A DNA stretch of 64,000 nt, taken from positions 1-64,000 of IMG/VR virus record IMGVR_UViG_3300032038_000062. One strand, given 5' to 3'. Shown here one piece after another: positions 5,900 through 42,301 of the stretch. The notes under the pieces are model-generated. The model searched no databases. It was not told where the DNA came from and saw only the letters and a program-made list of their open reading frames with translations. How positions within the stretch are numbered: the first letter of the stretch is position 1; each line of letters starts with the position of its first letter. The translations under genes were made by a program, and so were the position numbers. Origin of the DNA: a virus.

Positions 5900-6139
5900 T
5901 TTGTTTTTCTCCTTTACTTAAATAAAAATGTTTGGTTTTTGTGCTTTCGCTGCGCTTATTCTATCAGAAAAAAAGACCTTTTACAAGTATTTTCTTGTTT
6001 AGTCAATAATTAAATATTGCACTTTATTAAAACCGCAAGATAGTATTCGTCAATATACACAAAATGAAGTCTAACAAGTCTAAACGGTCTAAAAATGGCT
6101 TATCTATGCGGTTTTAGACCTATTAAGTCTAATACTAAT

Positions 6140-6168
6140 TTGCATTTATCGGGATAATGTGGTATAAT
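6140..6168 (+). promoter_or_regulatory. First early promoter, TTGCAT-N17-TATAAT
   Basis: -35 at 6140-6145, 17-bp spacer, -10 at 6163-6168, extended TG. Sits after the divergent intergenic region. Confidence 0.55.
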
Positions 6169-6191
6169 AATAAGCGAAATGGGGGATTAAA

Positions 6192-6419
6192 ATGAAAATC
6201 TTTGTGAAAAATGACAGTAAGAAAAAGTATTACAATAATGTAATAAACCGCTTAAATAATTACAAAAATGTAATAGAAAAGTTACAAAATGCCCTTAAAA
6301 TATTACAAAAAAGTTACAAGGTTGTAATAAGTATCTCCCTCTGGGCGCTCGACCGGTGTCTGCCGGACAGGTGCGGGCGTATGCCCTCAGTGGCGTCCCG
6401 TGTCAGTATATACGTCTAA
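6192..6419 (+). CDS. Hypothetical small protein. The 3' half runs through a GC-rich hairpin island.
   Basis: 75-aa ORF with RBS GGGGGA. Coding status of the GC-rich second half is uncertain. Confidence 0.4.
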   Translation: MKIFVKNDSKKKYYNNVINRLNNYKNVIEKLQNALKILQKSYKVVISISLWALDRCLPDRCGRMPSVASRVSIYV

Positions 6420-6638
6420 AGGAGCTGCGTTTGGGGACCTGGGAGCTGCGTTTGGCAGCGCGGGCAGCTGCGTTTCAAAAGAAGCTACGCTTTAAAGGGA
6501 GCTACGTCTAAGCGGAGCGTTGCCGCTGTAGGAGCTACAATTTTAGACTATTAAAGTCTAAGAGGAAAAAATAAACTATTGACTTTTTTATAAAAGAGTG
6601 ATATAATAATTATAGAATAAAGAAAGGGGATAAACCTA

Positions 6639-6905
6639 ATGGCAAGATACAAACTTACTTTTACAGACACAGAAACTGGTACAACTTATTTGCTTGATGA
6701 TAATATGCCCAGCTATGACAGCGCGGTTTTTGCCGCTTTGGATTATGTCGCGGACGGCGCAGTCAAAGCGGGCGAAAGTGGCGACACTGCCGCAGAAGTA
6801 AGGCTTTTTAACGCTGGACTTTCCATGGCTATAGAGTTCGCCGGAATGGCTGGGCTTGACTGCGCGAGTTGCTGCGGCTTTACCATCACAAGGAAAGGAG
6901 AATAA
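6639..6905 (+). CDS. Hypothetical early protein
   Basis: 88 aa, RBS AAAGGGGA, preceded by palindrome plus promoter. Confidence 0.55.
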   Translation: MARYKLTFTDTETGTTYLLDDNMPSYDSAVFAALDYVADGAVKAGESGDTAAEVRLFNAGLSMAIEFAGMAGLDCASCCGFTITRKGE

Positions 6906-7037
6906 AAGAGATTGCGCCAAGCGCAATCTTTCTGCCCTTAGGCTTCTAAAGTCTAAATTATTCTACTTTTAATCTTGACAATATTATTATAGTATGATAT
7001 AATATAGATAAAGTAAAAGAAAGGAAAAAGAGTAATT

Positions 7038-7298
7038 ATGGTTTATGTAATGACGTATCATACGCCTGTGGGCAACTTTTTGAGTGCTTGGAGTTCAAGG
7101 GACGCCGCTATTGAAGCTGTTTACACAATGATTGTAAATGGATATAAAGAAGCAAAGGCAGAAGGAAATGACAAAGCGGCAAACGAATTTTATGATATGG
7201 GATTGAAAGCTAATAAAGCATTTGCCGCTGGCAAGAATGACTTTGAGAGATGGCAGATTATTCCCTTGGAGATGGATACATTAGTTCAAGACGACTAA
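7038..7298 (+). CDS. Hypothetical early protein
   Basis: 86 aa, RBS AAAGGAAAAAGAG, own promoter. Confidence 0.55.
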   Translation: MVYVMTYHTPVGNFLSAWSSRDAAIEAVYTMIVNGYKEAKAEGNDKAANEFYDMGLKANKAFAAGKNDFERWQIIPLEMDTLVQDD

Positions 7299-7326
7299 GG
7301 TTATAGGTGACCATAACCTTTTTTCT

Positions 7327-7381
7327 TTAGACTTCTAAAGTCTAAGCAGAGATTGACAAAAGAAAAGAGATATGATATAAT
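7327..7381 (+). promoter_or_regulatory. Palindrome TTAGACTTCTAAAGTCTAA (7327-7345) plus early promoter TTGACA-N17-TATAAT (7353-7381)
   Basis: Representative of about 21 such units. Read directly. Confidence 0.7.
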
Positions 7382-7407
7382 ATGGATAGAATAAAGGAGG
7401 AGATATT

Positions 7408-7764
7408 ATGAAAGAAAAGAAAAAGAAAGAGAAAGATAACTTCCGTTTCTTTTTCATGACTATAAGTATACTTACTGCTGTAGTTGTTATTCTTGTGGGA
7501 TTTGTCGTAGTGATTTTGGAGTATAACACATCAATAGCGAGAATAAAAGTAAACATCTATCCGCTTTTAACCACAGTCACAGGAGTAGACAGAGATAAAG
7601 ACCTCGTAACCGTAGAAGATAATAACGGCTTTATCTGGCAGTTCGAAGGCGCAGATGATTGGGAAGAAGGCGACTTATGTAATTGCCTTATGGATAGCCA
7701 AGGAACAGAAAAAATTTTTGATGATGAAATTATAATGACAAAATATGAAAGCGGCGCGAGGTAG
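7408..7764 (+). CDS. Hypothetical membrane protein (one TM)
   Basis: 118 aa, RBS AAAGGAGGAG, hydrophobic segment ILTAVVVILVGFVVVIL. Confidence 0.55.
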   Translation: MKEKKKKEKDNFRFFFMTISILTAVVVILVGFVVVILEYNTSIARIKVNIYPLLTTVTGVDRDKDLVTVEDNNGFIWQFEGADDWEEGDLCNCLMDSQGTEKIFDDEIIMTKYESGAR

Positions 7765-7904
7765 CGCCCTTTCTTTCTTATTTTAGTTTAGACTTCTAAA
7801 GTCTAAGATTTTCTTGGAATTTTTTGGAAAAAATTTTTTGGAATTTTTCTTAAAATATATTAATTTCCTAAAATTAAGGGTTGACATTTTCCCATAATTA
7901 TGGT

Positions 7905-8100
7905 ATAATATAGACAATGAAAGAGAGAGAGAAGGGAATGATTCCAATGTGGTTGTAATTCACTAAACAATTCAATCAATAAACCATTCGATTGATAAAC
8001 CAGATGTACCAGACAGAAAGGGTTAAAGCAATGGCAAGAGATTCTCCCAATTAAGATAATATTGATATTTTGCTACGGAGGGGAATAATCCCCTTCTTTT
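7905..8100 (+). ncRNA. Candidate small non-coding RNA (promoter-to-terminator unit with no ORF)
   Basis: Early promoter GGGTTGACA...TGGTATAATATAGAC at 7868-7905. About 180 nt with only a 13-codon ORF. Strong terminator GGAGGGGAATAATCCCCTTCTTTTTT at 8073-8100. Confidence 0.45.
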
Positions 8101-8263
8101 TTATGTATTTTTAGACTTCTAAAGTCTAAGGACAAAAAATTATTTTGAAAAAGTAGTTGACTTTTTTATAACTCTATGATATAATATAGATACAGTCAAG
8201 GGAGATAGAAACCGACTGAATATAAAATTTGGGTGGCGACCGTCGCTAAAGGAGTTTTTATAA

Positions 8264-8616
8264 TGGCAGAAAAGAAGTACACACAGAGAGATTTTCTCAC
8301 AGATGTAATTAATGGAGTATTTAACGAAACCGTGACCGGCTACGCTCAGGAGCGCCTCAATAAGCTCGACGAGAAGAACGAGAAGCGCAAGGCAGAAACT
8401 TCTGCTAATCAGCTTAAAAACGCCCAGCTTTTGGAGGACTTCGTAACATTCATCACCGAGCAGGAGGAGCCGCAGACCACAACCGAAATTGCTAACCACT
8501 TCGGCTTGTCAACTCAGAAGGTTGCCCCGATTATGGCTAACGGCGTAAAGACCGAGCGCGTGACCGAAACCACGAAAACGGTCAACAAGAAGAAGTACAA
8601 GGCATACACCGCCTAA
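8264..8616 (+). CDS. Winged-helix DNA-binding protein, paralog A
   Basis: 117 aa from ATG 8264 with RBS AAAGGAG. C-terminal TTTEIANHFGLSTQKVAPIMANGVKTERV resembles a wHTH recognition helix plus wing. Paralog of 11769..12116. Confidence 0.6.
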
Positions 8617-8802
8617 GAAAGGAAAGGGTTACAAGTTTGTAACCCTTTTTCTCTTTTCCCTCCTTAGACTTCATATGTCTAACATATTTTTTATATTTTT
8701 AATAAAATATTAGTAATTAATTTGTATAATTTTTTGACTTTTATAGAAAAAACAATTATAATAATAGTAGAAAGAATGGAAAGAAAGGGAGGTTATAGCT
8801 CA

Positions 8803-8973
8803 ATGATTTGCAAAGTCAAGGAAAGTTTTGAACTATCAGAAATAGAGAAAAAAGTTTATGCTGATTTCCAAGAAATTCTAATTCAAATGAAAGAGGTTGC
8901 AACTGTTTCTGATACAAGACATTTAATTGAAACTATTTATTGTGACTTAGTAACTTTAATACCTCAGGTTTAG
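8803..8973 (+). CDS. Hypothetical small early protein
   Basis: 56 aa from ATG 8803 with RBS AAAGGGAGG. The upstream part of the 8722 ORF overlaps the promoter. Confidence 0.45.
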   Translation: MICKVKESFELSEIEKKVYADFQEILIQMKEVATVSDTRHLIETIYCDLVTLIPQV

Positions 8974-9075
8974 ACTTTAGAAGTCTAAGAAAATAGTATT
9001 TTTTCAAAAAAATAATTGACAAATAAAATTTTTTATGATATAATAATTATAGAAAATTGAAAGGAGGCTATTTTA

Positions 9076-9468
9076 ATGGCTACATCAAAAACTGCTTTGC
9101 GTGAAAAAGTGAGAAATTTTTATCTTGATAAAATCACAAAATTTCTTGACGGCGAGGGCGAAGAAATTTTGATGATTAAAACAAATCAATTTTGTTTTCC
9201 TGTGGTTGATGATGAAGGGAATGAATTGTTTATAAAAGTTGTTGTTTCTGTACCGAACGGCTCGAAGGACAAGAACGGTGCTACAATTCCCTTTGACGGC
9301 TACGGAGAGGCAATTGGTTATGAAACTGAGAAAAAGCAAAAAGAGGAAAAGAAAGCAGAGAAGGCAAAGAAAAAAGCCGAAAAAATGGAGCGTGACAGAT
9401 TGGAACGCCAGAGAAAGAAAGAACAGCAGGCAAACAAAGAAAAATACAGAGAGGGAAAAGGGGCATAA
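9076..9468 (+). CDS. Lys-rich early protein, paralog A (C-terminal K/E/R tail ending KGKGA)
   Basis: 130 aa. Paralog of 14235..14597, sharing the start of the N-terminal domain and the tail. Confidence 0.6.
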   Translation: MATSKTALREKVRNFYLDKITKFLDGEGEEILMIKTNQFCFPVVDDEGNELFIKVVVSVPNGSKDKNGATIPFDGYGEAIGYETEKKQKEEKKAEKAKKKAEKMERDRLERQRKKEQQANKEKYREGKGA

Positions 9469-9578
9469 AAACCCCTTTTTTCTCTAAAGGAATTTTAGAC
9501 TTCTAAAGTCTAAACAAGGGTTGACTTTTCTTTTATTGTATGATATAATATAACTACAGTAAGAAAAGGAGTGATTAA

Positions 9579-9779
9579 ATGTATATTGTAAAAAGACCGC
9601 AAGTTGTTTTAACAACTAAAGACCTTCAGGCAATCCGCACAACTATGCTGATATTAGATGAAGTTCTCGACAAGGACGATAACCTTGTGCTTGATATTGA
9701 TACTTCTTCAATAGCAAGGGCTTATGAAACTTTATGCGAGTTTGTTAAAGATTGCGAGATAGATGAGGAGGAAGAATAA
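9579..9779 (+). CDS. Hypothetical acidic early protein
   Basis: 66 aa, RBS AAAAGGAG. Confidence 0.5.
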   Translation: MYIVKRPQVVLTTKDLQAIRTTMLILDEVLDKDDNLVLDIDTSSIARAYETLCEFVKDCEIDEEEE

Positions 9780-9960
9780 AATGATGATTATTTGCGCAAT
9801 TTTTATTGCTGTCGGCATTATCGCTACGGTTGTCACCGCTATTAAGATTGATTTAAGTCACGACCCCACGCCGCCGCTGATTTTGTTTTTCTTTATAAGC
9901 GCAATCGTTACATTAAGCGCTATTGTCAGTTTTATCGTTGGTCATTTTACAGGAGTATGA
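9780..9960 (+). CDS. Small membrane protein (two TM)
   Basis: Start MMII with RBS GAGGAGG in the stop region of the upstream gene (translational coupling). Confidence 0.5.
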
Positions 9961-10101
9961 AGGTAAAACTTCATACTTTTTTTTACTATCTGTTTAGACT
10001 TCTAAAGTCTAAACTTTAATAGCAAGAGAAAAAAATTTTTTGAAAATGTATTGACTTTTTTATAATACTATGATATAATATAAATACAGTAAAGAAAGGA
10101 T

Positions 10102-10560
10102 TTGATAAACTTGAAAAGAAAAATTTGGTTCGATATGGATGGAACAATCGCTAACCTGTACGGCGTGGAAAATTGGCTTGACGATTTGAGGGCAGAAGTC
10201 CCACGACCGTACAAAATCGCAAAAGCAAATGTTAATTTGTCCCTTCTGGCTCGTTATCTCAACAAGTTGAGGGCGGGCGGCTATAAAATCGGCGTTATTA
10301 GTTGGACTTCCATGAAGTCAAGCCGAGAATATGAAGAAGAAGTCGCCGCCGCAAAAATTCATTGGCTTATCAATCACCTCCCTTCTGTTTGGTTTGATGA
10401 AGTTAATATTGTACCCTACGGCACAGAAAAAAATCTTTTCAATAAAGGGCGCGACCTGCTTTTTGATGATGATATCAGAGTAAGGGAAAAATGGACAGGC
10501 GAAAGTTATCCTCCCGAACAGATTTTCGACGTACTGCACAACTTGATTTCGGCGCTTTAA
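10102..10560 (+). CDS. HAD-superfamily 5'(3')-deoxyribonucleotidase-like hydrolase
   Basis: DMDGT motif I (IWFDMDGTIANLY). Size and layout resemble NT5C-type nucleotidases. The start may be TTG at 10111. Confidence 0.55.
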   Translation: MINLKRKIWFDMDGTIANLYGVENWLDDLRAEVPRPYKIAKANVNLSLLARYLNKLRAGGYKIGVISWTSMKSSREYEEEVAAAKIHWLINHLPSVWFDEVNIVPYGTEKNLFNKGRDLLFDDDIRVREKWTGESYPPEQIFDVLHNLISAL

Positions 10561-10672
10561 TGCGCTGAAATCTTTTTAGAAAATTTAGACTTCAAAAGTC
10601 TAAGAAAGAATAGAAAGGGGTTGACTTTTCTATAATTGTATGGTATAATATAGATAAGAAAGGAGGAGAAAT

Positions 10673-10912
10673 ATGAATATTCAATTAATCAGTAATGTAA
10701 AAATTAATTTAGAACCTTCAGAACTTAATGCTATAAATACTACAAAAAAAGTTTTAGAAAGAATTGAAGAAATTATTGATAGCGTCAAGAATGCCAATTT
10801 TTGGGAGTTTTTAAGCGAATATTATGATAATGATATTATAGAACTGCTTGACGATTTCCAACAAGATGATAGGTTAGAACGCCGCATTAAAGAATATCTC
10901 TGGGAGATATGA
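10673..10912 (+). CDS. Hypothetical early protein
   Basis: 79 aa, RBS AAAGGAGGAG. Confidence 0.5.
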   Translation: MNIQLISNVKINLEPSELNAINTTKKVLERIEEIIDSVKNANFWEFLSEYYDNDIIELLDDFQQDDRLERRIKEYLWEI

Positions 10913-11037
10913 CGACGAGGAAGAAGATTTTTAATCTTCTTCTTTTTTCTTTAGACTTCAAAAGTCTAAACTATAATTGACAAAAAATTTTATTTATGAT
11001 ATAATATAAATACAAAAAAGGAAAGCTGGGAGAAAAA

Positions 11038-11166
11038 TGAAAGAAAAACTTAACGAAATCGAAAAAGAAATTAAAGAAAAAATGGAAGAAAGCATATATA
11101 ATGACGATATTTATATTACTGTAACTATCGTTTTCGAAGTATTACACTCTATATTAGACGATTAGG
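11038..11166 (+). CDS. Small early protein (42 aa)
   Basis: Own promoter TTGACA..TGATATAAT at 10978-11013, RBS AAAGGAAAG, ORF below the 60-aa track cutoff. Confidence 0.4.
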
Positions 11167-11270
11167 CGGTCGCCGCTTTGTGATTTAGACTTCTAAAGTC
11201 TAAATTTTTATTGACCTATTAAATATATTATGATATAATATAAATGTAATAAAGAAAGGAGATTGTTTTA

Positions 11271-11582
11271 ATGTGTAAAAAAACTAAATATAAAAATTAT
11301 CGAATTGGAAAGTATCTTTTCACTGTAGAAATAAAAAAAGGCTGTGACTGTTTTGGAGATTATTTTTACATCACCATAAGAGATAGACACGACGCGCCGC
11401 GGAACTTTTTTGAGAGAATTAAACTAAAATTTAAGAACGAATATGCTATTGGAGATTCTTGCTGGCGCCCACTTTTTGACAAAAAAAATTTTGAGCGCTT
11501 TATCCTTGATAAGTTAGATTTTATTGTAGACAATAAATTTAACTTAGAAGAAGCAAACATTTTATGGGAAAATCTCGAATGA
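11271..11582 (+). CDS. Hypothetical early protein
   Basis: 103 aa, RBS AAAGGAGA. Confidence 0.5.
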   Translation: MCKKTKYKNYRIGKYLFTVEIKKGCDCFGDYFYITIRDRHDAPRNFFERIKLKFKNEYAIGDSCWRPLFDKKNFERFILDKLDFIVDNKFNLEEANILWENLE

Positions 11583-11768
11583 GATTTTCTTTTTGATTTT
11601 CTTTTAGACTTACAAAGTCTAAACCCCTAAATTTTTTTTGAAAAAAGTATTGACTTTTTTATTAAAATAGTTTATAATATACTTGTAAGGTTGAGAAAGG
11701 AAAGAAACCTTAATGAAACCTACAAAATAAAAATTTGGGTTGCGACCTACGCAAGAAAGAGGTTTATT

Positions 11769-12116
11769 ATGGCAGACAAGTACACTCAGAGAAATTTTTT
11801 GACAGACGTTATCAACGGCAATATTACCGAACAGGTGACCGCCTACGCCGAGGAAAGACTTGCGAAACTTGACGAGAAGAACGAAAAGCGCAAGGCTGAA
11901 ACCTCCGCCAATCAGCTCAAAAATATCCAGCTCGGCGAGGATATTGTCGCCTTCGTTACCGAGAACGGCGCGCAGACTACTTCCGAGATTGCAAGACAGT
12001 TCGGTGTTTCTACTCAGAAGATTGCGCCTATCACCAACGCACTTGTGAAGGAAGGCAAGCTGACCGAAACCACAAAGACGGTAGACAAGAAAAAGTATAA
12101 GGCGTTTACAGTTTAA
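11769..12116 (+). CDS. Winged-helix DNA-binding protein, paralog B
   Basis: 115 aa from ATG 11769. About 60% identical to 8264..8616, with a conserved leader and stem-loop upstream. Confidence 0.6.
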   Translation: MADKYTQRNFLTDVINGNITEQVTAYAEERLAKLDEKNEKRKAETSANQLKNIQLGEDIVAFVTENGAQTTSEIARQFGVSTQKIAPITNALVKEGKLTETTKTVDKKKYKAFTV

Positions 12117-12237
12117 CCGCCGAGGGGTACGCAAGTACCCCGACTTTTTTTAGATTTTCTTAGACGTTGTAAGTCTAAGATTAAATTGACTTTATTTTAT
12201 TTTATGGTATAATATAAATAATGAAGGAGGTAATATA

Positions 12238-12636
12238 ATGAAAATTCAGTATATTGCAAATGACGGAAAAATTTTTGATAATGAGTTTGACTGTCGGGAA
12301 TATGAGTCAAAAAAACAAGTAGATGAATTTCTCAATAAAAGAGAGCTAATCTTCTTGTCACGCTCAGGAGAAGTTCTTTTCGGAGAGATTGACGATTGCG
12401 CCGAGAGAGCTACTTATATTTTTGTTAATAGCGAGGCGGCACTTCAAGCTCTTTGGGGAGAAAATGAATGTCAGCGAGAAATCCGCCCACCCGAAGAAGG
12501 ATATTGGTATTATGATTATGAGTATGAAACCTGGAGAAGCATGAAAACTCAGGTTGAAATATTAGAAAATGAATTAGCTGAACTCAATAAAATTTATGAC
12601 CGCTTTGATTATCTTATAAGAAAACCTCAAGACTGA
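12238..12636 (+). CDS. Hypothetical early protein
   Basis: 132 aa, RBS GAAGGAGG. Confidence 0.5.
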   Translation: MKIQYIANDGKIFDNEFDCREYESKKQVDEFLNKRELIFLSRSGEVLFGEIDDCAERATYIFVNSEAALQALWGENECQREIRPPEEGYWYYDYEYETWRSMKTQVEILENELAELNKIYDRFDYLIRKPQD

Positions 12637-12747
12637 GGTTTTCTTTTTATTTTATTCTTAGACTTCTAAAGTCTAAAGTTAAATTGACTTTTTTAATCTT
12701 CTGTGATATAATATAGTTACAGTAAAGGAAAGAGAAAGGAAAATAAA

Positions 12748-12990
12748 ATGAAAGTAAAAACTAATAAATTTTGGGAAATTATCAACTATCTGTGTTTGAT
12801 TGGTCTTGTTATCGGTCAAATTACCGTAGGCTATGCTTACATCTTTGCGCAAATTATCTATCTGATTTGTAATACCGCCTCCGTTATTCGTGATATTAAA
12901 TTGCGGTTGCCGCCCTCTAATATTGTTAGGGACGCTTGCTTTACTGCAATTACTATTGGCTTAATTATTATCCGAGCGTTTTTCGGCTAA
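12748..12990 (+). CDS. Small membrane protein (two TM)
   Basis: 80 aa, RBS AAAGGAAAA. Confidence 0.5.
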   Translation: MKVKTNKFWEIINYLCLIGLVIGQITVGYAYIFAQIIYLICNTASVIRDIKLRLPPSNIVRDACFTAITIGLIIIRAFFG

Positions 12991-13215
12991 AATATCCTCC
13001 TTTACTTTATAGGTAGGCGTGGGCAATAGTCCACGCTATCCTATTAAAATTAGTTTAGACTTCCAAAGTCTAAGCCCACTCGTTGGGCGGTTAGCATAGG
13101 CTAACTTTTATTTTCTTTGAAAAAACTATTGACAAAACCGAAAAAATATGATATTATATATATGTCAGTTAGAGAGCGAAGGCAAACCTAAATTGACAGA
13201 AAGGAAAGTGATAAT

Positions 13216-14110
13216 TTTGAATTTTGAAAACAAAATTGACCGAAGAAAAAAATATTATTTGGTTTTTGATTGTGAAACCGCGACTTTGCCCTTCGCGGCA
13301 ACCATTGAAGAACCAAAAGACAAACAAAAAATTGCTATTGCTAAACCATTAATTTATGACTTGGGATGGCAGGTAATTGACCGCAAAGGGAATGTATATT
13401 GCCGCCGCTCGTATTTAGTCAGCGAAATTTTTTCCGTTCCTGCGGTTTTTAATACCGCGTATTATGCAAGCAAGCGCCCGATTTATCTTGATAAATTGGC
13501 AAAAGGTGAAATTATCCTGACCGATTGGAAAACAGCCACTGCAAAACTAGAAGAAGATTTACAAAAGGTTGAAGCGGTCGGCGCTTATAACTCAATGTTT
13601 GACTATAAAAAAGCAATTCCATTTACAGAAAAATATATCAAGATGTTATATTCTCCATACTATTATAAATGGGAAGAAAAGCAAATTGAGCATTGCAAGC
13701 ACATTTTATCAACGCCATATTATAAAAGTGATAATGAATTTAACCCTGAGATTTTCGAATTTAGGGATAAACAATATGCACTTTTTGACCTTTGGGGGCT
13801 GAGTTGCCGCCACCTCTTAAACAATAATGAATACAAACAAACTTGCATTAATAACGAATGGAAAACGGCAAGCGGGAAATTTTTCAAAACAAGCGCAGAA
13901 ACCGCATTCAGGTTTTTAACAAAAAACAATGATTTTATAGAAAGTCACACGGCTATTGAAGATACTATAATTGAGAGCCAAATTTTGACCGAAATTATAA
14001 AGCGCACAAAAAACAAATTTGAATTGGGGATTATTTATTTTCCCTTCCGTGAACTCGGAACAGTTAAAGATTTTGAAAACACACACGACAATATTTTTGA
14101 TTTATTCTAA
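13216..14110 (+). CDS. DEDDh-family 3'-5' exonuclease (DnaQ-like), paralog A
   Basis: Exo I LVFDCETATLP, Exo II YNSMFDYKKA, Exo III HTAIEDTIIES. Start TTG or GTG near 13207-13216 after RBS AAAGGA. Conserved leader shared with paralog B. Confidence 0.7.
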
Positions 14111-14234
14111 AAGAAAAAGGTTACAGAAATGTAACCTTTTTCCTCCAAAACTACCTTAGACTTTGTAAGTCTAAACCCTATTTGACTTCTCTATAATTAT
14201 ATAGTATAATATAGATAATAAAGGAGGTAATAAT

Positions 14235-14597
14235 ATGGCAAGTCGTTCTCAATTAAGAGCTAAAATCCGTCAAAAATATCTAACCCAAATTCGTGATTTT
14301 CTCAAATCACAAGGCGAAGAAGTTTTACTGACAAAAAGTAACCAACTGGCGATTCCAACCTGTGATGACGAAAACAACGAAGAAACACTTACAATTACTT
14401 TTGCTGTCCCTCTCGGCTCTAAAGCAGATAATGAACCTTTTGACCCATACACCGCTGCGGAAGTTTACGCACAAAATACAGAAAATAAAAGGGTTGAGGC
14501 TGAAAAGAGAGCAAAAGCAAAAGCAGAAAAAATTAAAAGAGATAAGGAGTACAGAGAAAAACAAAAAGCAAACAAAAAGAAAGGAAAAGGCGCATAA
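14235..14597 (+). CDS. Lys-rich early protein, paralog B
   Basis: 120 aa; same architecture and KGKGA end as 9076..9468. Confidence 0.6.
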   Translation: MASRSQLRAKIRQKYLTQIRDFLKSQGEEVLLTKSNQLAIPTCDDENNEETLTITFAVPLGSKADNEPFDPYTAAEVYAQNTENKRVEAEKRAKAKAEKIKRDKEYREKQKANKKKGKGA

Positions 14598-14788
14598 GCC
14601 TTTTCTTTTTAGAAGAATTTAGACTTTAGAAGTCTAAATCTTATGCTGCGGCGGTTAGCATAGACTAACTAAAAAATTTTTTATAAATTTATAAAAAAGT
14701 ATTGACAAATTAAAAAATCTATGCTATAATTGTATTGTCAGTTAGGGAAAGACGTTAAATCTAAATTGACAGAAAGAGGTTGATAATT

Positions 14789-15670
14789 TTGAATTTTGAA
14801 AAAAAACTTGACCGCCGCCGCAAATACTACCTTGTATTTGATTGTGAAACGGCAACTTTACCCTACGCGGCAAATTTTGAGGGTAAGGCAAGACAGGCAA
14901 TTTCTATTGCTAAACCATTAATTTATGATTTGGGTTGGCAAGTGATTGACCGTCAAGGCAATATTTACCGCCGCCGTTCGTACCTTGTTAGCGAAATTTT
15001 CAGCGTCCCTGCGGTTTTCAATACTGCATATTACGCAAGTAAACGTCCGATTTATCTCGAAAAATTAAATAATAACGAAATTATCCTGACCGACTGGAAA
15101 ACAGCCACCGCAATATTAGAAAAAGATTTGCAAGAGGTTTGCGCCGTTGGTGCTTATAATTCAATATTTGACTTTAAAAAAGCGATACCATTTACAGAAA
15201 GATATATAAAAGCGTTGTACTCACCGCACTATTATAAATGGGAACGGCGGCAAAACGAAATCTGCGACCGAATCGCAAGCGGAGAAATTCAAGAGAATAA
15301 TCAGACTTTTGACCCAGAAAATTTTTTCTTTAGAGAAAAAAATTATCCGTTGTTTGACCTTTGGGGCTTAAGTTGTAAACACTTATTAAATAATGATGAT
15401 TATAAAAAATCTTGTATTATGAATAAGTGGGAAACGGCAAGTAAAAAATATTTCAAAACTTCGGCGGAAACTTCATTTAGATATTTAACAAAAAATGATG
15501 ACTTTGAAGAAGCGCACACAGCTATTGAAGATACAATAATTGAGAGCTTAATTTTTGCCGAAATTGCAAAACGTACTAAAAATAAATTTGAAATGGGAAT
15601 TATTTATTTTCCGTTTAGAATTTTAGGCACTGTCAAACAATTCAAGGAACTAAACGATATTTTCGATTAA
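14789..15670 (+). CDS. DEDDh-family 3'-5' exonuclease, paralog B
   Basis: About 70% identical to paralog A; motifs LVFDCETATLP / YNSIFDFKKA / HTAIEDTIIES. Start TTG at 14780 or 14789. Confidence 0.7.
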   Translation: MNFEKKLDRRRKYYLVFDCETATLPYAANFEGKARQAISIAKPLIYDLGWQVIDRQGNIYRRRSYLVSEIFSVPAVFNTAYYASKRPIYLEKLNNNEIILTDWKTATAILEKDLQEVCAVGAYNSIFDFKKAIPFTERYIKALYSPHYYKWERRQNEICDRIASGEIQENNQTFDPENFFFREKNYPLFDLWGLSCKHLLNNDDYKKSCIMNKWETASKKYFKTSAETSFRYLTKNDDFEEAHTAIEDTIIESLIFAEIAKRTKNKFEMGIIYFPFRILGTVKQFKELNDIFD

Positions 15671-15798
15671 AGAAAGAAAAGGTTACAGAAATGTAACCTT
15701 TTCCCCCCCAAAATTATTTTAGACTTTGTAAGTCTAAATCCTATTTGACTTCTCTATAATTATATAGTATAATATAGATAATAAAGGAGGCGAAGATA

Positions 15799-16074
15799 AT
15801 GGTAGGCTATAAAATTATGAAAAATTTTGATAATTATAGATACACTTATACAGAAACAGTAGCAATTTGCTTATCTTTTGAAAGGGCAATACAATATCTT
15901 ATTGAAGAATGCGGCTTAGATGAAAATTATATCTATTCTGATTTTTATGGAAAAACCACATTAAAAGACGCATTCGGTAAAAACTGGTTATCAGAATTAA
16001 TTAATAATAAAATAACTTATTTTTCTTTTGAAGATTGTGATTATGAGATTGAAGAATGTAATATTTTAGAATAG
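15799..16074 (+). CDS. Hypothetical early protein
   Basis: 91 aa, RBS AAAGGAGG. Confidence 0.5.
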   Translation: MVGYKIMKNFDNYRYTYTETVAICLSFERAIQYLIEECGLDENYIYSDFYGKTTLKDAFGKNWLSELINNKITYFSFEDCDYEIEECNILE

Positions 16075-16360
16075 GGCACTCAGTGCCCCTTTTTATTTTA
16101 GACTTACGAAGTCTAAACTTTTCTAACCTTAGACTTACAACGTCTAAACTCATCAAATTTTCTCTCCCTCGTCAAACTTCTCACTATCTCGCGCCCAGTC
16201 ACTTCGTGTGTGTGTCCCCTAGTCTCCCTTTTCTAGCTTTTCTCCTGAAATGAGCTACGTTTTAAAATTTGAAATTATAAGGAAAAAGCGCTATAATATA
16301 TATAGAAAGTTAAGAAAGAATTAAAAGACTTTCAATCTATAAAAAAGAAAGGGAAACTAA

Positions 16361-16708
16361 ATGGAAAAGAAGATTACAGAAAAAGAGGTTATTAAAAGAC
16401 TTTCTCTCGGAGAATGTGACGAGGAAATGATTGAGTGGGCAACAGGTAAATATGAGAAGCTGTTAGCCGCCGAAGAGAAGAAAGCCGAGAAACAGAAGGA
16501 AAAAGCTCTTGAGAATAAGCCGATTATCGAAGCAATCGAAAGTGTACTCACAGATGAATACCAACCCGCATCAGTATTTGCTAATGCTGCGGACGTTAGC
16601 GTTCAGAAGATTGTCCACGTTCTAAAGGCTATGGATTCGGTAGAAGTCGGAGAAATTAAGATTACCGGAAAAGGAAAGTCAAACGGATATAGAAGAAGAG
16701 AGGTTTAA
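16361..16708 (+). CDS. Hypothetical early protein (last gene of the cassette)
   Basis: 115 aa, RBS AAAGGGAAA, promoter TTGAAA-N17-TATAAT at 16268-16296, terminator at 16700-16730. Confidence 0.5.
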   Translation: MEKKITEKEVIKRLSLGECDEEMIEWATGKYEKLLAAEEKKAEKQKEKALENKPIIEAIESVLTDEYQPASVFANAADVSVQKIVHVLKAMDSVEVGEIKITGKGKSNGYRRREV

Positions 16709-16709
16709 C

Positions 16710-17650
16710 CTCTCTTTTTTTTATACCCTTATTATTATATTATTATAATATTATAATATAATATAATATATAATAAAAAAATATTATAATAAAAATTTGA
16801 AAAAAAGCTAGAGCTGGGGCAGCACCAAATTATACCAAATCATACGATTTCATACCAAATCACACTATTTTATATAACTTTATACCTTCTCATATCCTTT
16901 TATATTCCCTTATACCCCTTTATATCCCCTTATACCAAACTATACAATTCCCTATAACCTTATACCAAACCATACACTATTCTCTACTACTAAACCCCTT
17001 TAATTCCTACTAAACCCCTTTATCTATTTCTAAACTAATTCCCCTTTGAACTTCCTCTTCTGAGTACTCGTCAGTTAGGAAAGACTCGAATCCTATACCC
17101 TTCCACTAATCTACCTAGATACGCCTATTGTAAGCAAACACAACGTTTTTCTTTTCGCTTAGAGCACAATCCTATTATTATAATATTATAATAAAACGTA
17201 TAAGCCCACCCATACGTTTTTCTTATACGCTTTTCTACGAATCCTATTATTATAATATTATAATATTATAAGCCCACTTATACGCCCAATTATCAGCTTT
17301 TTTATACGCTCCTATTGGAATCCTATTATAATAATATTATAAGAAAGATTATAAGCCCACTTATACGCTCTTCTACGAATCCTATTATTATAATATTATA
17401 ATATTATAATAAGATTATAATAGGATTATAATAAAACGTTGTTGTCTCGCCTAGCGCTAAAGCGCAAGGCTCAACCTATGGCTACGCCGTTGTCGCCTTA
17501 TGCTCTTCGAGCAACGGCAAAAACGTCTTCGCACAACGGGGAAGGAAGAAAACAAAGGGAACACAATTCTATTATTATATTATTATATTATAATATTATT
17601 ATAATATTTCTTAATTTGATAATAAGTATTTTTTTCTAATAATTCCTACA
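16710..17650. repeat. AT-rich repeat region at the convergence of early and leftward transcription
   Basis: Multiple palindromic ATTATAATATTATAAT elements. Four direct repeats of about 65 bp (AATCCTATTATTATAATATTATAATA...TAAGCCCACYYATACG) at about 17160-17440. Short TTATACC / CTTTATA repeats at 16830-17040. GC-rich island at 17440-17560. Confidence 0.7.
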
Positions 17651-17926
17651 AAATTTTAATCCCAGAATTCTTGGAAAATTTTTGGAAAATTTTCTATCCC
17701 ATAAAAGAGATTTCTGGAAAATTTCCCATTATTAGGTCGCGCCCGTCCGCATAAAATCGTTCAAATCCTAAAAAAAAGAAAGAGAGGACTAGCCTCTCTT
17801 TTATTCATATCTTATATATTCTTTTGAAGGAATAGTTATATCATACTCTGTTTGGCGAAAGCTTGTGCCTTGTAATATCTTCACAAACGTCAGCATGAAC
17901 ACATTCTTTACAAGTTGCCATAACAA

Positions 17927-18409
17927 TTACCTCCCGTTAATAATTTCGTATGTGTAACTGTCTATGTAGTTGCCGCATTCGTCTTTTGTAGTTTCGTGCC
18001 AATGGTGAATATATCCGTTATGACGCTTGCAGAACTTATCATAATGGCGTTTTACGGGGTTGCTACCTACCACATGCCACTCAATTCGATGGTGCGTTTT
18101 TACGAGTTCCTCCAGCTTTTGGAAAACATCTCTTCCAAGGAGAGGGTTTCCTTTGTCAAAGGAGAATAGCCCAAAATTCTGCACGGTATCACTATAATCA
18201 CTGATTCTGTATGTGAGGAATCCGATAAGGTTGTCGCCGCTATCAACGATTGCGAATTGGTACAGGTCGTCTTTCTCCTCAATTTTCGGCAAGCTGCTTC
18301 CACAACAATATCCGCAATAGTAGAAATAATCTGTAGTGTACAAGTGCTCGGTGAATTTTCTTGTAATTTCTTGTGCATATAAGAGTGCTGGCTTAAGCAT
18401 TGCTTTCAC
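17927..18409 (-). CDS. Hypothetical protein, possibly an acyltransferase-like fold
   Basis: 160-aa ORF with weak resemblance only. Confidence 0.4.
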   Translation of the reverse strand: MKAMLKPALLYAQEITRKFTEHLYTTDYFYYCGYCCGSSLPKIEEKDDLYQFAIVDSGDNLIGFLTYRISDYSDTVQNFGLFSFDKGNPLLGRDVFQKLEELVKTHHRIEWHVVGSNPVKRHYDKFCKRHNGYIHHWHETTKDECGNYIDSYTYEIINGR

Positions 18410-18666
18410 CCCTCTCTCACCGTAGTCGTAGCAATTGGACTATCAGGATTTATCATAAGAAGCGCTGCAACTGGTTCATACTCAGCTGTTGGATTTACAA
18501 GCGAAGTGGCGCCGGTGCGTAAATCTACCGCATTGTGGGCGTTATTGTTCTCGTCGATTATTGGAGCTATCTTCATTAAATAAGAACCAGAAAGAAGAAA
18601 AACTTCACCACATCCTATCTTCTCAAAAGATACCATATTCTTTTTCTTATTAATTTCTATCTTCAT
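18406..18666 (-). CDS. Hypothetical protein
   Basis: 86-aa ORF overlapping its neighbour by 4 nt. Confidence 0.45.
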   Translation of the reverse strand: MKIEINKKKNMVSFEKIGCGEVFLLSGSYLMKIAPIIDENNNAHNAVDLRTGATSLVNPTAEYEPVAALLMINPDSPIATTTVREG

Positions 18667-19169: not shown

Positions 19170-19542
19170 TTGATAACTCCTCCTCTTCCTCCCAATTCAA
19201 GTTGCGGCAGTCCCTTAAAAGACGCTCATAGTGCGCGGGGTCTTCATTTCTAATCGAACCAAGAGGAAGAATTTTATCTCTATTCTTGGTATAAACACCC
19301 GTTATATCATAGTAAACCCCATCATATCTCCAGACAAAGTGTCCTTCGATTGGGTCATAACAAATACACCCCGCGCAATATCTTTGATAGAGGATTTCTG
19401 CAAACCAATAGCAGGCACCACAAGTAAAGAGTTTATCAACGCAATTAACCATTTCTTCACTATTTCCTGCCGCCATACGAAAACGCTCTATAAATTTAAG
19501 GATTGTTTTTGGGTTCTCCCTCGAACAACTCATTACTGGCAT
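19162..19542 (-). CDS. Hypothetical Cys-rich protein
   Basis: ORF 19162..19644; the start is probably the internal MPVMS, to limit overlap with the upstream gene. Confidence 0.4.
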   Translation of the reverse strand: MPVMSCSRENPKTILKFIERFRMAAGNSEEMVNCVDKLFTCGACYWFAEILYQRYCAGCICYDPIEGHFVWRYDGVYYDITGVYTKNRDKILPLGSIRNEDPAHYERLLRDCRNLNWEEEEELSNE

Positions 19543-20104
19543 AGAATTTACTACCTCCCTCAATAATTTCATCAAGAGTACACGGCGCCCAGTGCATATA
19601 AGGAACCATACAGCCAACATTATAACTGCGGATTTCCTTTTCAAGCAACGCCGCCACTTCTCTATCCACTCTCATTTGGATATTCCATTGGAAACTCACG
19701 TGGACATGAGCATAGAGTTGATAGCCGCCGTGGTATTGGTAGTCATAAGAACTCATAGGGAAATGAGTAAGGACTACTTTGCGCCCGTTATCCTCAATTA
19801 CATCGCTCTTCTCAATTTCTACAAAAAGTTTCCTAAAATCAGCATTACGCAAAAGTTTTTTATCGTGGTTTCCCACAATTAAGTGTTTCTTTCCATTAAG
19901 TTGGTTAAAGAGTTCGATTGTATGCTGCGCGCCGTACCAACTTACATCGCCAAGAATATAAACGTGGTCATCAATTCCGACCTTATCATTCCAAGCTTTA
20001 ATTAGACCGTTATCGTGGTCTTCAATCGTATCAAAAGGACGATTATCAAAGGCAAGACAATTCTTATGTCCGAAGTGAAGGTCACCAATATAAAAATTAG
20101 CCAT
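19496..20104 (-). CDS. Calcineurin-like metallophosphoesterase (Ser/Thr phosphatase-like)
   Basis: Motifs GDLHFGH, ILGDV, GNHD, THFP. Confidence 0.7.
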   Translation of the reverse strand: MANFYIGDLHFGHKNCLAFDNRPFDTIEDHDNGLIKAWNDKVGIDDHVYILGDVSWYGAQHTIELFNQLNGKKHLIVGNHDKKLLRNADFRKLFVEIEKSDVIEDNGRKVVLTHFPMSSYDYQYHGGYQLYAHVHVSFQWNIQMRVDREVAALLEKEIRSYNVGCMVPYMHWAPCTLDEIIEGGSKFYASNELFEGEPKNNP

Positions 20105-21646: not shown

Positions 21647-22852
21647 TTAAATACAAGTTTTTAGAGCCTTATAATATTTATTGCTCTTATACTCCATATC
21701 GTTTGCGATGATGTTACGGTCATCAGTAGACAAGCCCTTCAAGAGAGAGATATTAAGAACAGTCTTAATATCCATAGTACCTTCGAGCTTAGCAATGCGC
21801 TCAATCGCACGATAGGTTGCAAGGTGATGGATATGTGCCTTTTGTACTGCCTTACGGAAATCGTGGATAAAGGTAATCAACTCGTTGTTGCCATTTGCAA
21901 CAGCTTCCTCAATCTTAGGAGAATAGTCAATCTCCATCAAGGCATACCGGTCAAGAGAAGCGGCGTCAAGCTGATAACGACCGGTATACTCAATATCGGC
22001 GCCAGTACCGTAAGTGTTACCCGCAGCGATTACTCGGAAATCTTCGTGCGCAGTAACCTGACCAGTAGGAAAGTCAAAGTAACCGTTTGCGATTGCCGCA
22101 TTCAAGATAATAAGAACTTCGGGAATAGAACCGTCCATCTCGTCGAGGAAGAACAAGCCGCCATCTTTAAAAGCCTTATAAAAGGCAGTTTCGTGGTAAT
22201 GACCGTTAGCGTCGATAAAACCAGTCAACTTATACTCCTGAGTTACAGCGTTGGTAAAATAGAAGTTCAAACCTAAACCAGCGGCTACTTGCTGTGCAAG
22301 TACGTTCTTACCAGTGCCAGCGGGCCCCGCCAAGAAAACGGGAATTGCGGCAGAAACAAGAGTGAGTACGTCATCAAACTTCTCGTGGGTTACGCCAGTA
22401 ATCTTATTAATTGCATTGGGAGTAACAATTTCATGGCGCTGAGGAAGAAAACCAAACTCGTCAATGAGTCTTTTACGAACTACAGGGTAAACTTCCTTAA
22501 AGATAGACTCAGTAGAAGCCTCCGCAACAGTCTTGAAGAATAGCTCTTCCAACTTGCCACCAAGACCACTGCTTTCTCCACCGGCGGGCACAGTAACACC
22601 AGACATAGGAACTCCATCATAGTTATGACGCATCTTTTCAAGAGCCTTTTCCGCAGCGTTCTTATGGAAAGCCGCACGCTCAATTACAGGAGCGGGCAAA
22701 CCTTTTCTACCAGCTTCAATGCTGTTAAACTTATTACGAGGGTCGTAGTAGTGTCCCTGAAAAAGCAAGTAAAGATTCTTGCCGCCCTTTGCGAACTCCT
22801 CAGTATCAATTACATAGGTAATATTATCTTTTGCATAAACTACAGTAAACAT
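21647..22852 (-). CDS. MoxR / CbbQ / CobS-like AAA+ ATPase (AAA_5 type)
   Basis: Walker A LAGPAGTGKN, Walker B LFFLDEMD, sensor region. About 170-aa N-terminal extension of unknown function. Confidence 0.7.
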   Translation of the reverse strand: MFTVVYAKDNITYVIDTEEFAKGGKNLYLLFQGHYYDPRNKFNSIEAGRKGLPAPVIERAAFHKNAAEKALEKMRHNYDGVPMSGVTVPAGGESSGLGGKLEELFFKTVAEASTESIFKEVYPVVRKRLIDEFGFLPQRHEIVTPNAINKITGVTHEKFDDVLTLVSAAIPVFLAGPAGTGKNVLAQQVAAGLGLNFYFTNAVTQEYKLTGFIDANGHYHETAFYKAFKDGGLFFLDEMDGSIPEVLIILNAAIANGYFDFPTGQVTAHEDFRVIAAGNTYGTGADIEYTGRYQLDAASLDRYALMEIDYSPKIEEAVANGNNELITFIHDFRKAVQKAHIHHLATYRAIERIAKLEGTMDIKTVLNISLLKGLSTDDRNIIANDMEYKSNKYYKALKTCI

Positions 22853-25034: not shown

Positions 25035-25835
25035 TTACTTTGAATCAATATCACCAATATCTACGATAGTGCCACCGTCCGTAGAAACCTTTGGCAACTG
25101 ACCATTCCACTTCTCGATTTCTTTATTCTTAATTACCTTATCTGTCAACGAATCGTTCAAAAGTTTATTTGCTTCGGCGTCACCTTCAGCTTTAATTTTT
25201 GCTGCTTCTGCCTCAGCCTGTGCATTTGTAATAGCGGTCTGCTTCTCAGTTTCAGCCTTCAAGAGTTGTTGCTGGGCAACCTGCTTCTCTTCAATCGCAT
25301 TAATGAAGGCATCTGAGAAATCAAAATCAACAATATTAACATCAGTAATATATAGACCAATCTCATTCAGCTTTTCATTAAGTCCAGTAACAAGTCCCTC
25401 AGAAATCAAAATACGATTAGTCACGCTCTGCTCAGCAGTATATTCCGATACAATAGCCTTTAGCACTTCATTTACTGCGGGCACAACAAGTACATTTTCA
25501 TAGTCCGCACCAATGTTCTTGAAGATACTATAACTCTTTGCACTGTCTACTCGATAGTTAATTGCCAATACCGTACTGACACTTTGAAGGTCTTTTGAGA
25601 ATGCTTCGGTATTAACTTCTAGCTTCTGAATACGGTTATCAATGTCTTCTACTGACTGCACAAAGGGCGCCTTAAAGTGGATACCCTCTGAGAGAACACC
25701 TTCCTGTACACTGCCCATCGTAACTACGACGCCAGTATGACCGGGACTTACAATCGTAAAACAGTTGAACAGAACGATGATTGCGGCAATCGCAATGACT
25801 CCAATAACAATAACTCGCTTAATCAATTTCTCCAT
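25035..25835 (-). CDS. SPFH / Band-7 (prohibitin, HflC-like) membrane protein
   Basis: N-terminal TM then an SPFH-like region (GHTGVVVTMG...) and a C-terminal coiled coil (QQLLKAETEKQTAITNAQAEAEAAKIKAEGDAEA). Confidence 0.7.
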   Translation of the reverse strand: MEKLIKRVIVIGVIAIAAIIVLFNCFTIVSPGHTGVVVTMGSVQEGVLSEGIHFKAPFVQSVEDIDNRIQKLEVNTEAFSKDLQSVSTVLAINYRVDSAKSYSIFKNIGADYENVLVVPAVNEVLKAIVSEYTAEQSVTNRILISEGLVTGLNEKLNEIGLYITDVNIVDFDFSDAFINAIEEKQVAQQQLLKAETEKQTAITNAQAEAEAAKIKAEGDAEANKLLNDSLTDKVIKNKEIEKWNGQLPKVSTDGGTIVDIGDIDSK

Positions 25836-38873: not shown

Positions 38874-39587
38874 CTAGAGGTTTAATTCAATAACTAAATG
38901 GTAGAGAATTGTAACTTTATCAGTAAGGTCAAAACTATCGTGGTAATGACCAAAAAACCAATGTTTATATGTAATTTTGTCTTCGACTATATCTAAAAAC
39001 TGCTCCATAGACTTATCTATTTCATCTTGGTTGACACCAAAAAGAAATAACTCTTCCAATTCTCTCTCGAATTTAAGTGGAACTGTATGAGAGAAGATAT
39101 AATCAAATGAGTTCTCTTTTTCTAAGATTTCTAAAATTTTTTCCTTTTCTTCATTTGTCATTTGCTCACTTTCAAACCAACGACCAGCGCCACGATATAG
39201 ACGATAGTATTTATCTATACTGTATGCGCCGCCCAAACATAGACACTTTCTATCTTTAAGATAAAAGATACCATCCTCTGGGAAGATGATATTTGGTCTA
39301 TTTGGTTCTACCCAAGTATAACATTTTAATTCCTCATTATAAACACGTTTATAAGAAGGAATATTCCACGCTCTTTCTTCGTGGTTGCCGTGAGTGCCGA
39401 TAATAGTGATGGGCATTTTAGCGAGTTTATTTTTAACGTGAGCATCACGTTCATCAAGAAAATAATTTAAGCCAAGGTCGCCGCAAATTACAAGATAATC
39501 TTCCTTTGTCGTATTTTCTTGTTCACATAAAGTTTTAATTCTTGAAAGAGAACCGTGAATGTCACCCGTACAAAACGCTCTATTCAA
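38874..39587 (-). CDS. Calcineurin-like metallophosphoesterase (second copy, different family member)
   Basis: GDIHG, GDLG, GNHE motifs. Confidence 0.7.
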   Translation of the reverse strand: MNRAFCTGDIHGSLSRIKTLCEQENTTKEDYLVICGDLGLNYFLDERDAHVKNKLAKMPITIIGTHGNHEERAWNIPSYKRVYNEELKCYTWVEPNRPNIIFPEDGIFYLKDRKCLCLGGAYSIDKYYRLYRGAGRWFESEQMTNEEKEKILEILEKENSFDYIFSHTVPLKFERELEELFLFGVNQDEIDKSMEQFLDIVEDKITYKHWFFGHYHDSFDLTDKVTILYHLVIELNL

Positions 39588-41835: not shown

Positions 41836-41844
41836 TATATAATG

Positions 41845-42294: not shown

Positions 42295-42301
42295 TTATAT
42301 G

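Follow-up and report, generated by a model that had tools for sequence, protein, structure and literature searches.

Two paralogous genes in the DNA of a large gut phage analysed here, exoA (13217-14110) and exoB (14789-15670), encode proteins with the fold and the catalytic residues of DEDDh exonucleases, and we found that the family to which they belong is tied to a small HAD phosphatase both by gene fusion and by gene neighbourhood, a link that is new here. The window (the whole stretch that was analysed, 64,000 nucleotides in length) carries the three genes on the plus strand in one cluster of similarly built transcription units. The explanation that we tentatively favour is that they form part of an early module by which DNA, most likely the host's, would be converted to dNMPs and then to nucleosides.

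Two paralogs of an unnamed phage family

ExoA (297 aa), a long form of the family, and its paralog ExoB (293 aa) are identical at 218/295 positions (74%, E = 2e-162, BLASTP), which bears out a preliminary description of this DNA that had put the two paralogs at about 70% identity; both open reading frames are real. The same description started the pair at 13148 and took the duplication to be tandem, and both points needed correction: the ATG at 13148 sits within the -10 region, exoA starting instead with a TTG at 13217 that aligns with the ATG of relatives, and the copies are near-tandem rather than strictly tandem because a lysine-rich 120-aa gene (14235-14597, plus strand; own promoter at 14182-14210), with no Pfam or PHROG matches, lies between them. 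The pair shows a dN/dS of 0.13 at a dS of about 1.5, ExoB keeps all of the catalytic residues, and the differences between the two fall at positions that are variable across the family. Judged by these substitution patterns, both copies are under purifying selection and appear to be functional; they stem from an old duplication, and the retention of both may serve dosage or a slight difference in substrate.

Both proteins carry three intact exonuclease motifs, as had been read initially: Exo I (DxE) as D18-C-E20 in ExoA and DCE in ExoB; Exo II (Nx2-3(F/Y)D) as Y124-N-S-M-F-D129 and YNSIFD; and Exo III (Hx4D, the 'h' subtype) as H244-T-A-I-E-D249 and HTAIED. A family alignment of 78 sequences, which reaches down to about 29% identity, shows no variation at D18, E20, N125, F128, D129, H244 and D249; N125/F128/D129 align to NAxFD of ExoX and PolC, and H244/D249 to H-A-L-x-D of the same two. 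The AF2 model of the exonuclease (pLDDT 96.5) has the RNase H-like exonuclease fold of the DEDDh superfamily, and its Foldseek matches were DEDD exonucleases without exception, so that the original call from motifs was right in kind. Sequence and profile searches of the PDB with the exonucleases returned nothing significant; the family profile lines the three motifs up with those of ExoX and the PolC exonuclease domain, in a PDB match that is not significant. Neither protein matched Pfam RNase_T (PF00929) at E <= 1, and only 5 of the 78 relatives did (best E 3.3e-05). The check that had been proposed at the outset, an HMM search against the DnaQ, oligoribonuclease and RNase T families, was run with epsilon and PolC models in addition, and no family matched (NCBIfam E <= 10, Pfam E <= 1). 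We infer that ExoA and ExoB belong to a branch of the DEDDh (DnaQ-like) superfamily that has no name and is confined to phages, with predicted 3'-5' exonuclease activity.

The family corresponds to PHROG 20187 (about 2,900 sequence clusters), has no Pfam model, and turned up solely in phage records and on viral or MAG contigs; a literature search found no paper on it. It is carried by 10 phage records, and members occur in the culturable Enterococcus phages H1, which has two, and EF1; a megablast comparison of the exo region with phage genomes gave zero matches. Paralogs recur in related loci (the locus search was seeded from a narrower alignment, A2, the broad alignment A1 being too diverse). 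Residues 151-180 form a variable insertion, which a short form of about 200 aa appears to lack, and no paralog of the short form lies within the 64-kb window; the C-terminal 12 residues are also variable.

We considered whether the exonucleases could act in replication, as trans-acting proofreaders or 3'-end processors that would serve either recombination-dependent replication or a DnaE-type (C-family) polymerase of the phage's own. DnaE-type polymerases, a kind in which a built-in DEDD proofreader is usually missing, are encoded by related phages; the PDB matches of the DnaE-like polymerase of phage H1 are all DnaE-type alpha subunits; and the right end of the window, with the sequence just past it, holds genes for an RNase H, a DNA ligase and a UvrD-like helicase. 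However, the permissive threshold of E <= 10 recovered no match of the DnaQ, epsilon or PolC models to the exonucleases, polymerase genes are absent from the window, from the exo-locus flanks examined and from the 10 kb beyond the window's right end, and in H1 about 65-70 kb separate the polymerase from the exo genes, which sit amid small genes without assigned function. DnaE-like polymerases occur in 814 phage records as against the 10 with exo genes, and the best 80 polymerase-bearing viral contigs showed zero overlap with 79 exo contigs, in what is an incomplete comparison. A proofreading subunit would also fit badly with fusion to a mononucleotidase and with frequent paralogy. A replicative role thus seems improbable to us, and the early dismissal of proofreading holds to the extent that the distant H1 polymerase and the 10 versus 814 records disfavour it rather than refute it.

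Regulatory anatomy of the exo genes

The two genes share a series of elements, all on the plus strand. Each is preceded by a 19-bp palindrome (TTAGACTTNNNAAGTCTAA at 13055-13073 before exoA and a palindrome of the TTAGACTTNNNAAGTCTAA type at 14619-14637 before exoB) and by a terminator-like hairpin upstream of the promoter (GGTTAGCATAGGCTAAC and then a T run, 13089-13105; the same GGTTAGCATAGGCTAAC hairpin, 14653-14669). TG-extended promoters (TTGACA-17-TATTAT at 13129-13157 for exoA; TTGACA-17-TATAAT at 14702-14730 for exoB) are followed by an mRNA 5' leader hairpin (13163-13198 and 14736-14771, respectively), and the exoA gene is followed by a terminator hairpin, GGTTACAGAAATGTAACC and then a T run (14119-14136), of which an identical copy stands after exoB (15681-15698). 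The GGTTACAGAAATGTAACC hairpin occurs exactly twice (expected 0.00), and the GGTTAGCATAGGCTAAC hairpin stands once ahead of each exo gene and nowhere else in the window, and is kept before copy 1 in loci L003 and L007. The consensus structure of the leader hairpin, drawn from seven copies, shows compensatory changes in 5 of its 13 pairs; Rfam has no match to the leader or anywhere in 6000-18500.

The palindrome and the promoter extend well beyond the exo genes. We counted 22 copies of the palindrome at 6114-16147 (expected 0.11) and 19 near-consensus promoters in 10 kb, all on the plus strand, at 6579-15745; the cluster comprises about 20 units, with palindrome and consensus promoter common to all. 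Each copy had been credited with its own palindrome, promoter, leader and identical terminator, and all of these are present, but the first two are cluster-wide rather than specific to exo. The placement of the pair among early genes is read from the promoter type, which is the sense in which 'early' is used here. We envisage that exoA and exoB would be transcribed separately, each from a strong host-type promoter, and that the cluster of about 20 single-gene units, by its appearance, may be an early or host-takeover module.

Such a setting could also suit counter-defence, in which the exonucleases and the HAD enzyme would together reduce a nucleic-acid immune molecule to nucleosides. Candidate molecules are the cDNA of retrons or DRT systems, signalling oligonucleotides, and 3' ends that carry chain-terminating nucleotides, and each form of the exonuclease (long, short or duplicated) would be tuned to a target of its own. 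Early-type expression, as suggested by the promoters, amid genes without assigned function is consistent with this, as are the recurrent paralogy, the variable insertion and the confinement of the family to phage, viral and MAG sequences; the neighbours of relatives' exo genes include the NAD-related NADAR, isochorismatase and a CTP_transf_like cytidylyltransferase-family gene, which may have counter-defence roles of their own. Against it, selection on the pair is purifying and not diversifying, the exo and HAD genes have no tie to any particular defence system, and neither exonuclease resembles known defence or anti-defence proteins, a PADLOC scan of both having come back empty. Destruction of an immune signal, as first suggested, gained no specific support, the Cap18 match being a distant structural one, and we regard counter-defence as quite unlikely.

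A putative HAD nucleotidase partner and the proposed disposal of host DNA

Evidence that bears on function comes from a gene in the same cluster, 2.6 kb upstream of the exo genes (10102-10560, plus strand), which encodes a 152-aa HAD phosphatase resembling 5'(3')-deoxyribonucleotidases. The fold of the protein is NT5C-like, and the catalytic motifs of HAD enzymes are present; its motif residues D11, D13, K85 or K110, D122 and D123 are invariant, and its nearest structures and best HMM are 5'(3')-deoxyribonucleotidases, which are mononucleotide enzymes. Its score against Pfam PF06941 is 20.9 bits, under the gathering cutoff of 24.8, while its ortholog in L003 scores 31.0 bits and many homologs carry a precomputed PF06941 match. 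Matches of the HAD family profile to Pal lipoproteins among PDB sequences were spurious.

Fusions of the two proteins exist in either order on several contigs, as exo-HAD (P0126, P0128) and as HAD-exo (P0129), although they are rare (3/150 among the representatives listed); the protein at 10102-10560 is a stand-alone homolog of the fused HAD part. In 97 of 114 related loci the HAD gene lies within 10 kb of exo, and in 10 the distance to an exo copy is no more than 400 nt; all three phage records with this HAD also carry exo. Phass-1, although distantly related (28% identity), has the HAD gene directly behind an exo copy. Two genes upstream of its exo, Enterococcus phage H1 encodes a HAD hydrolase of a different kind. 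The co-occurrence reflects, in part, shared synteny among related phages.

Note that a DEDDh fold alone does not distinguish a DNA from an RNA substrate, and the top structural matches of the exonuclease comprise RNases (ERI1, RNase T, CAF1) and DNases alike. If RNA is the substrate, the proteins might trim or degrade host mRNA, or else they might work on the 24 phage tRNAs at their 3' ends, perhaps once a host anticodon nuclease had cut these, with the HAD protein as an end-healing 3'-phosphatase that acts before trimming. Close structural neighbours are indeed often RNases (ERI1/ERI2/ERI3, RNase T, CAF1/Pop2, oligoribonuclease and the Mycobacterium tuberculosis 4hec chain), two family members touch the Pfam Rv2179c-like model, and the window holds 24 tRNA genes. 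However, the structural match to oligoribonuclease or RNase T is no better than that to DNases, the best matches of the HAD protein, by structure and by HMM, are to deoxyribonucleotidases that act on mononucleotides, the cluster has no RNA-repair-type kinase or ligase partner, and the tRNA array lies 25 kb off on the opposite strand. We therefore consider RNA processing or decay an unlikely function.

For the disposal of host DNA, we propose that ExoA and ExoB, as Mg2+-dependent 3'-5' exonucleases, would free 5'-dNMPs from DNA ends, most likely those of host DNA fragments, and that the HAD enzyme, acting in series, would turn the dNMPs into nucleosides. Because the second step would convert nucleotides to nucleosides, host DNA would be destroyed and its nucleotides withdrawn from the pool. 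The degradation of host DNA or RNA had been suggested before, and its host DNA part finds real support in the fusion and neighbourhood with HAD, a pairing akin to that of T5 A1/Dmp (see below). Degradation of a circular chromosome cannot be begun by an exonuclease alone, and no partner endonuclease for ExoA and ExoB was identified. An MFS transporter (26752-28035) was considered as a nucleoside exporter and rejected, as it is of the lactate or oxalate-formate type.

With these assignments PHROG 20187, which merits an HMM of its own, gains a fold and a probable activity, and they pair it through fusion with a second unannotated family, in large phages of gut Bacillota that are abundant and whose early genes are almost wholly unannotated. 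If the proposal is true, nucleotide destruction in the style of T5, as opposed to recycling, would be widespread and reinvented with different enzymes. Since Enterococcus phages H1 and EF1 are culturable and carry members, the idea is directly testable.

Comparison with known systems

The closest parallel is phage T5, in which the pre-early proteins A1, a predicted metallophosphatase, and Dmp, a 5'-dNMP phosphatase, take host DNA to nucleotides and these to nucleosides that leave the cell (bioRxiv 10.64898/2026.04.02.716235). In T5, as would hold here if the predicted activities are right, a nuclease gene and a dNMP phosphatase gene occur in one set of early genes with strong promoters, and the HAD motif I of Dmp (DLDGT) is also found in the HAD protein of the window. 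In contrast to the metallophosphatase predicted for A1, ExoA and ExoB have the DEDDh fold and are not of the A1 type; Dmp, which has no Pfam family, has only motif I in common with the HAD protein (E 0.049); and the two-step DNA injection of T5 has no counterpart evidence here.

For the exonuclease step there is a precedent in T4 DexA, which has a documented part in host DNA scavenging (PMC12153337). Like DexA, ExoA and ExoB are stand-alone phage DEDDh proteins with (here predicted) 3'-5' exonuclease activity, but they have no sequence homology to it. With ExoX, Pol III epsilon, the PolC exonuclease domain, TREX1, ERI1 and RNase T they share the same core and the three motifs; however, superposition on the cellular enzymes covers only 145-176 of the 297 residues, and the exo family has about 120 extra residues. 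Finally, the HAD partner finds its best structural and HMM match in the NT5C family (human cdN and mdN; Staphylococcus 3bwv), from which it differs in being shorter (about 150 aa) and in having a reduced cap, and its substrate is assigned by that resemblance.

Two DEDDh exonuclease genes and their family

The duplication of exonuclease genes claimed in the preliminary description is real: exoA (13217-14110, +; 297 aa) and exoB (14789-15670, +; 293 aa) encode proteins that are 74% identical (E = 2e-162). The DEDDh call was also right, as both carry the DxE, NxxFD and Hx4D motifs and the AlphaFold model is confident (pLDDT 96.5, pTM 0.92). Ten residues (D18, E20, Y90, N125, F128, D129, E242, H244, D249 and E253) are invariant in an alignment of 78 sequences reaching down to ~29% identity. 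Just 145-176 of the 297 residues could be superposed on known structures; the remainder are family-specific and include a variable insertion (~151-180), outside which alone shorter relatives align to the query. Even with very permissive thresholds, neither protein matched a model in Pfam, NCBIfam or PADLOC, so the HMM search that had been proposed gave no assignment to the DnaQ, oligoribonuclease or RNase T families; the sole match was PHROG 20187, of unknown function. The family is large: a search recovered 2,893 clusters at the 90% identity level, none of them named, and ~1,000 at 50%. Given the invariant catalytic residues and modelled fold, yet no match to a named-family model, exoA and exoB are, in fold and chemistry, DEDDh superfamily members belonging to no named family.

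The exoA start, TTG 13217, is preceded by a GGA-rich ribosome-binding site and coincides in alignment with the ATG at which relatives begin; ATG 13148, previously taken as the start, falls within the -10 element and was rejected. exoB starts at TTG 14789. The description of the copies as tandem needs qualifying, since they are not adjacent: a lysine-rich gene (120 aa) that has a promoter of its own separates them. The duplicated DNA (~13,075-14,232 and ~14,640-15,795) includes an upstream hairpin (just two sites in the window, one per exo copy), promoter, leader, identical terminator hairpins, and the palindrome and promoter of the next unit. Each copy does have a palindrome, promoter, leader and terminator, as first reported, but the palindrome and promoter are common to the whole surrounding cluster. 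At the 5' end of the mRNA the leader folds as a hairpin with compensatory changes in 5 of 13 pairs (seven copies, four phages), and nothing similar was found in Rfam. The terminator-palindrome-promoter stretches 3' of the two genes (14137-14227 and 15700-15790) share 92% identity over 91 nt, and the coding DNA 75-81%, with synonymous sites near saturation; these cassettes reflect either gene conversion or strong constraint, and the genes that follow them (120 and 91 aa) are unrelated to each other.

A dS of ~1.5 and a dN/dS of 0.13 indicate that the duplication is old, with both copies under purifying selection, and the sites at which exoA and exoB differ are those variable family-wide. Two long copies also occur in two close relatives (L003, L007) and one in three others (L004-L006), all of which, with those of the window, fall into one sub-clade of a neighbour-joining tree without bootstrap. 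Paralogy is recurrent in the family, given at least two members in 30 of 114 related loci (the second in many cases being a short form, ~200 aa long and diverged to 23-32% identity) and two each in Enterococcus phages and Phage Phass-1. In Phass-1 (OQ749652.1, 4335-5279; 'code 15' clade), the CDS annotated over the exonuclease homolog is opposite in strand to the tblastn match, and the record may be misannotated at this place.

The early-type cluster and its genomic setting

The plus strand from ~6,100 to ~16,700 is organized as ~20 consecutive short single-gene units, each comprising a terminator, a palindrome of 19 bp (TTAGACTTNNNAAGTCTAA) and a sigma-70 promoter that is near consensus and TG-extended. 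We found 22 palindrome copies at 6114-16147 (+), one per transcription unit, against a chance expectation of 0.11, and 19 such promoters in 10 kb of cluster vs. 8 on the opposite strand window-wide. This anatomy resembles that of phage early or host-takeover modules, from which we infer that the genes are early. Palindrome and -35 element start 26 nt apart in eight units and 36-37, 46 or 57 nt apart in others. The increments approximate one helical turn and hint at a dimeric regulator that would bind one face of the promoter DNA at the palindromes. Duplication is common in the cluster: a second paralog pair (8233-8616 and 11691-12116, +; 73% DNA identity over 186 nt) encodes small proteins that have a MarR- or FaeA-like winged-helix domain at the C terminus. 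Just beyond the equivalent clusters of close relatives (L003, 13500-20855; L004 and L005), opposite-strand NADAR, isochorismatase-family and CTP_transf_like (cytidylyltransferase-family) genes look like NAD salvage or counter-defence functions; these families were absent from the scanned window ORFs (E <= 1e-5).

The phage is large and low in G+C (34%), encodes a 2,292-aa protein, and has a terminase (87-1910) closest to those of Geobacillus virus E3, Enterococcus phage H1 and SPbeta-like Bacillus phages (33-41% identity). Relatives of the exonucleases were found only on ~100-190 kb viral contigs and on MAG contigs, the latter for the most part binned with gut Clostridia. At the switch from plus- to minus-strand genes, AT-rich direct and inverted repeats (16707-17640; units such as TATTATTATAATATTATAATA and CTTATACGC) form a block that may be a replication origin or an end of the genome. 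The minus strand carries 24 tRNA genes (39753-48500), none seen to be a suppressor and one (43764-43837) called with a four-base anticodon (gtca). It also encodes an AAA_5 ATPase (21647-22852; PHROG annotation 'porphyrin biosynthesis'), an SPFH/Band 7 (HflC/K-like) protein (25035-25835), a Ro60/TROVE-like protein (60364-61836; DUF2828 and DUF7788; PHROG 'RNA-binding protein') and a 427-aa MFS transporter (26752-28035), an unusual auxiliary gene in a phage, whose nearest matches are L-lactate and oxalate/formate transporters (SfMCT, 236 bits, under cutoff). Two further minus-strand ORFs lie outside the exonuclease cluster: one with metallophosphoesterase motifs DLHFG and GNHD (19496-20104), probably the source of the window's Pfam Metallophos match (E 2e-11), and one with GNHE only (38874-39587).

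A HAD partner and comparison with known systems

In three family representatives the exonuclease is joined to a further domain bearing HAD motifs (FDMDGT ... TSW ... K ... LFDDN), which follows it in P0126 and P0128 and precedes it in P0129, and such fusions were found on several independent contigs. A stand-alone homolog of this domain, encoded in the window's early-type cluster (10102-10560, +), is 29-42% identical to the fused domains. Its gene lies on the same strand as the exonuclease in 72 of 79 viral loci and within the fetched flank in 97 of 114 (<=400 nt from an exonuclease copy in 10), most HAD-less loci being truncated upstream; in the distantly related Phass-1 it is immediately 3' of an exonuclease copy. 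Only three phage records have this HAD gene, all among the 10 with the exonuclease, and the HAD hydrolase that Enterococcus phages encode two genes upstream is a different one. Against Pfam NT5C the window protein scores 20.9 bits, below the 24.8 cutoff, and the L003 ortholog 31 bits; many homologs bear a precomputed NT5C match and JGI calls two 5'(3')-deoxyribonucleotidase, making the assignment as an NT5C-type nucleotidase good but not exclusive. Fusion in both orders and the persistent neighbourhood argue that the exonuclease and HAD enzyme would act on one pathway.

DEDDh exonucleases release 5'-mononucleotides, and NT5C-type enzymes strip their phosphate. We tentatively favour, with somewhat less than even confidence, an early-type module that would degrade DNA, most likely the host's, to dNMPs and then nucleosides: the exonucleases would free 5'-mononucleotides and the HAD enzyme would take off the phosphate. 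The attack on host nucleic acid proposed earlier is thereby strengthened for DNA through the nucleotidase link, which is new and absent from the original observation. Weak points of this host-DNA reading are that the DEDDh fold does not discriminate DNases from RNases, that the HAD enzyme's assignment is not exclusive, and that no endonuclease to open the host chromosome was identified. RNA trimming or repair, suggested by RNase-like structural neighbours and the 24 tRNA genes, misfits the best HAD matches and seems unlikely. Proofreading for a phage polymerase is structurally plausible, and Enterococcus phage H1 has a DnaE-type polymerase; we consider it just as unlikely, as the H1 exonuclease genes are far from that polymerase, no DnaQ HMM matched, the family occurs in just 10 phage records vs. 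814 with DnaE-type polymerases, and the nucleotidase fusion would go unexplained. The window phage's own polymerase was not found in the window, the exo locus flanks examined or 10 kb past the right end. Counter-defence against a nucleic-acid immune molecule, also raised in the preliminary description, has no specific support and no PADLOC match, and appears slightly less probable still.

Host-DNA degradation would be a known strategy in new form, relying on a superfamily branch that had not been described and directly testable in culturable Enterococcus phages. The presence in H1 of genes for ribonucleotide reductase, thymidine kinase and dUTPase would fit a phage that supplies its own nucleotides. 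Scavenging of host DNA by a stand-alone DEDDh enzyme has a phage precedent in T4 DexA (PMC12153337). In T5, which makes its own nucleotides, A1, a pre-early nuclease, destroys the DNA of the host and Dmp turns dNMPs into excreted nucleosides (bioRxiv 10.64898/2026.04.02.716235); the likeness lies in the pairing of a nuclease with a phosphatase (in the window, a putative dNMP phosphatase) among early-type genes, and Dmp shares HAD motif I with the window HAD protein.
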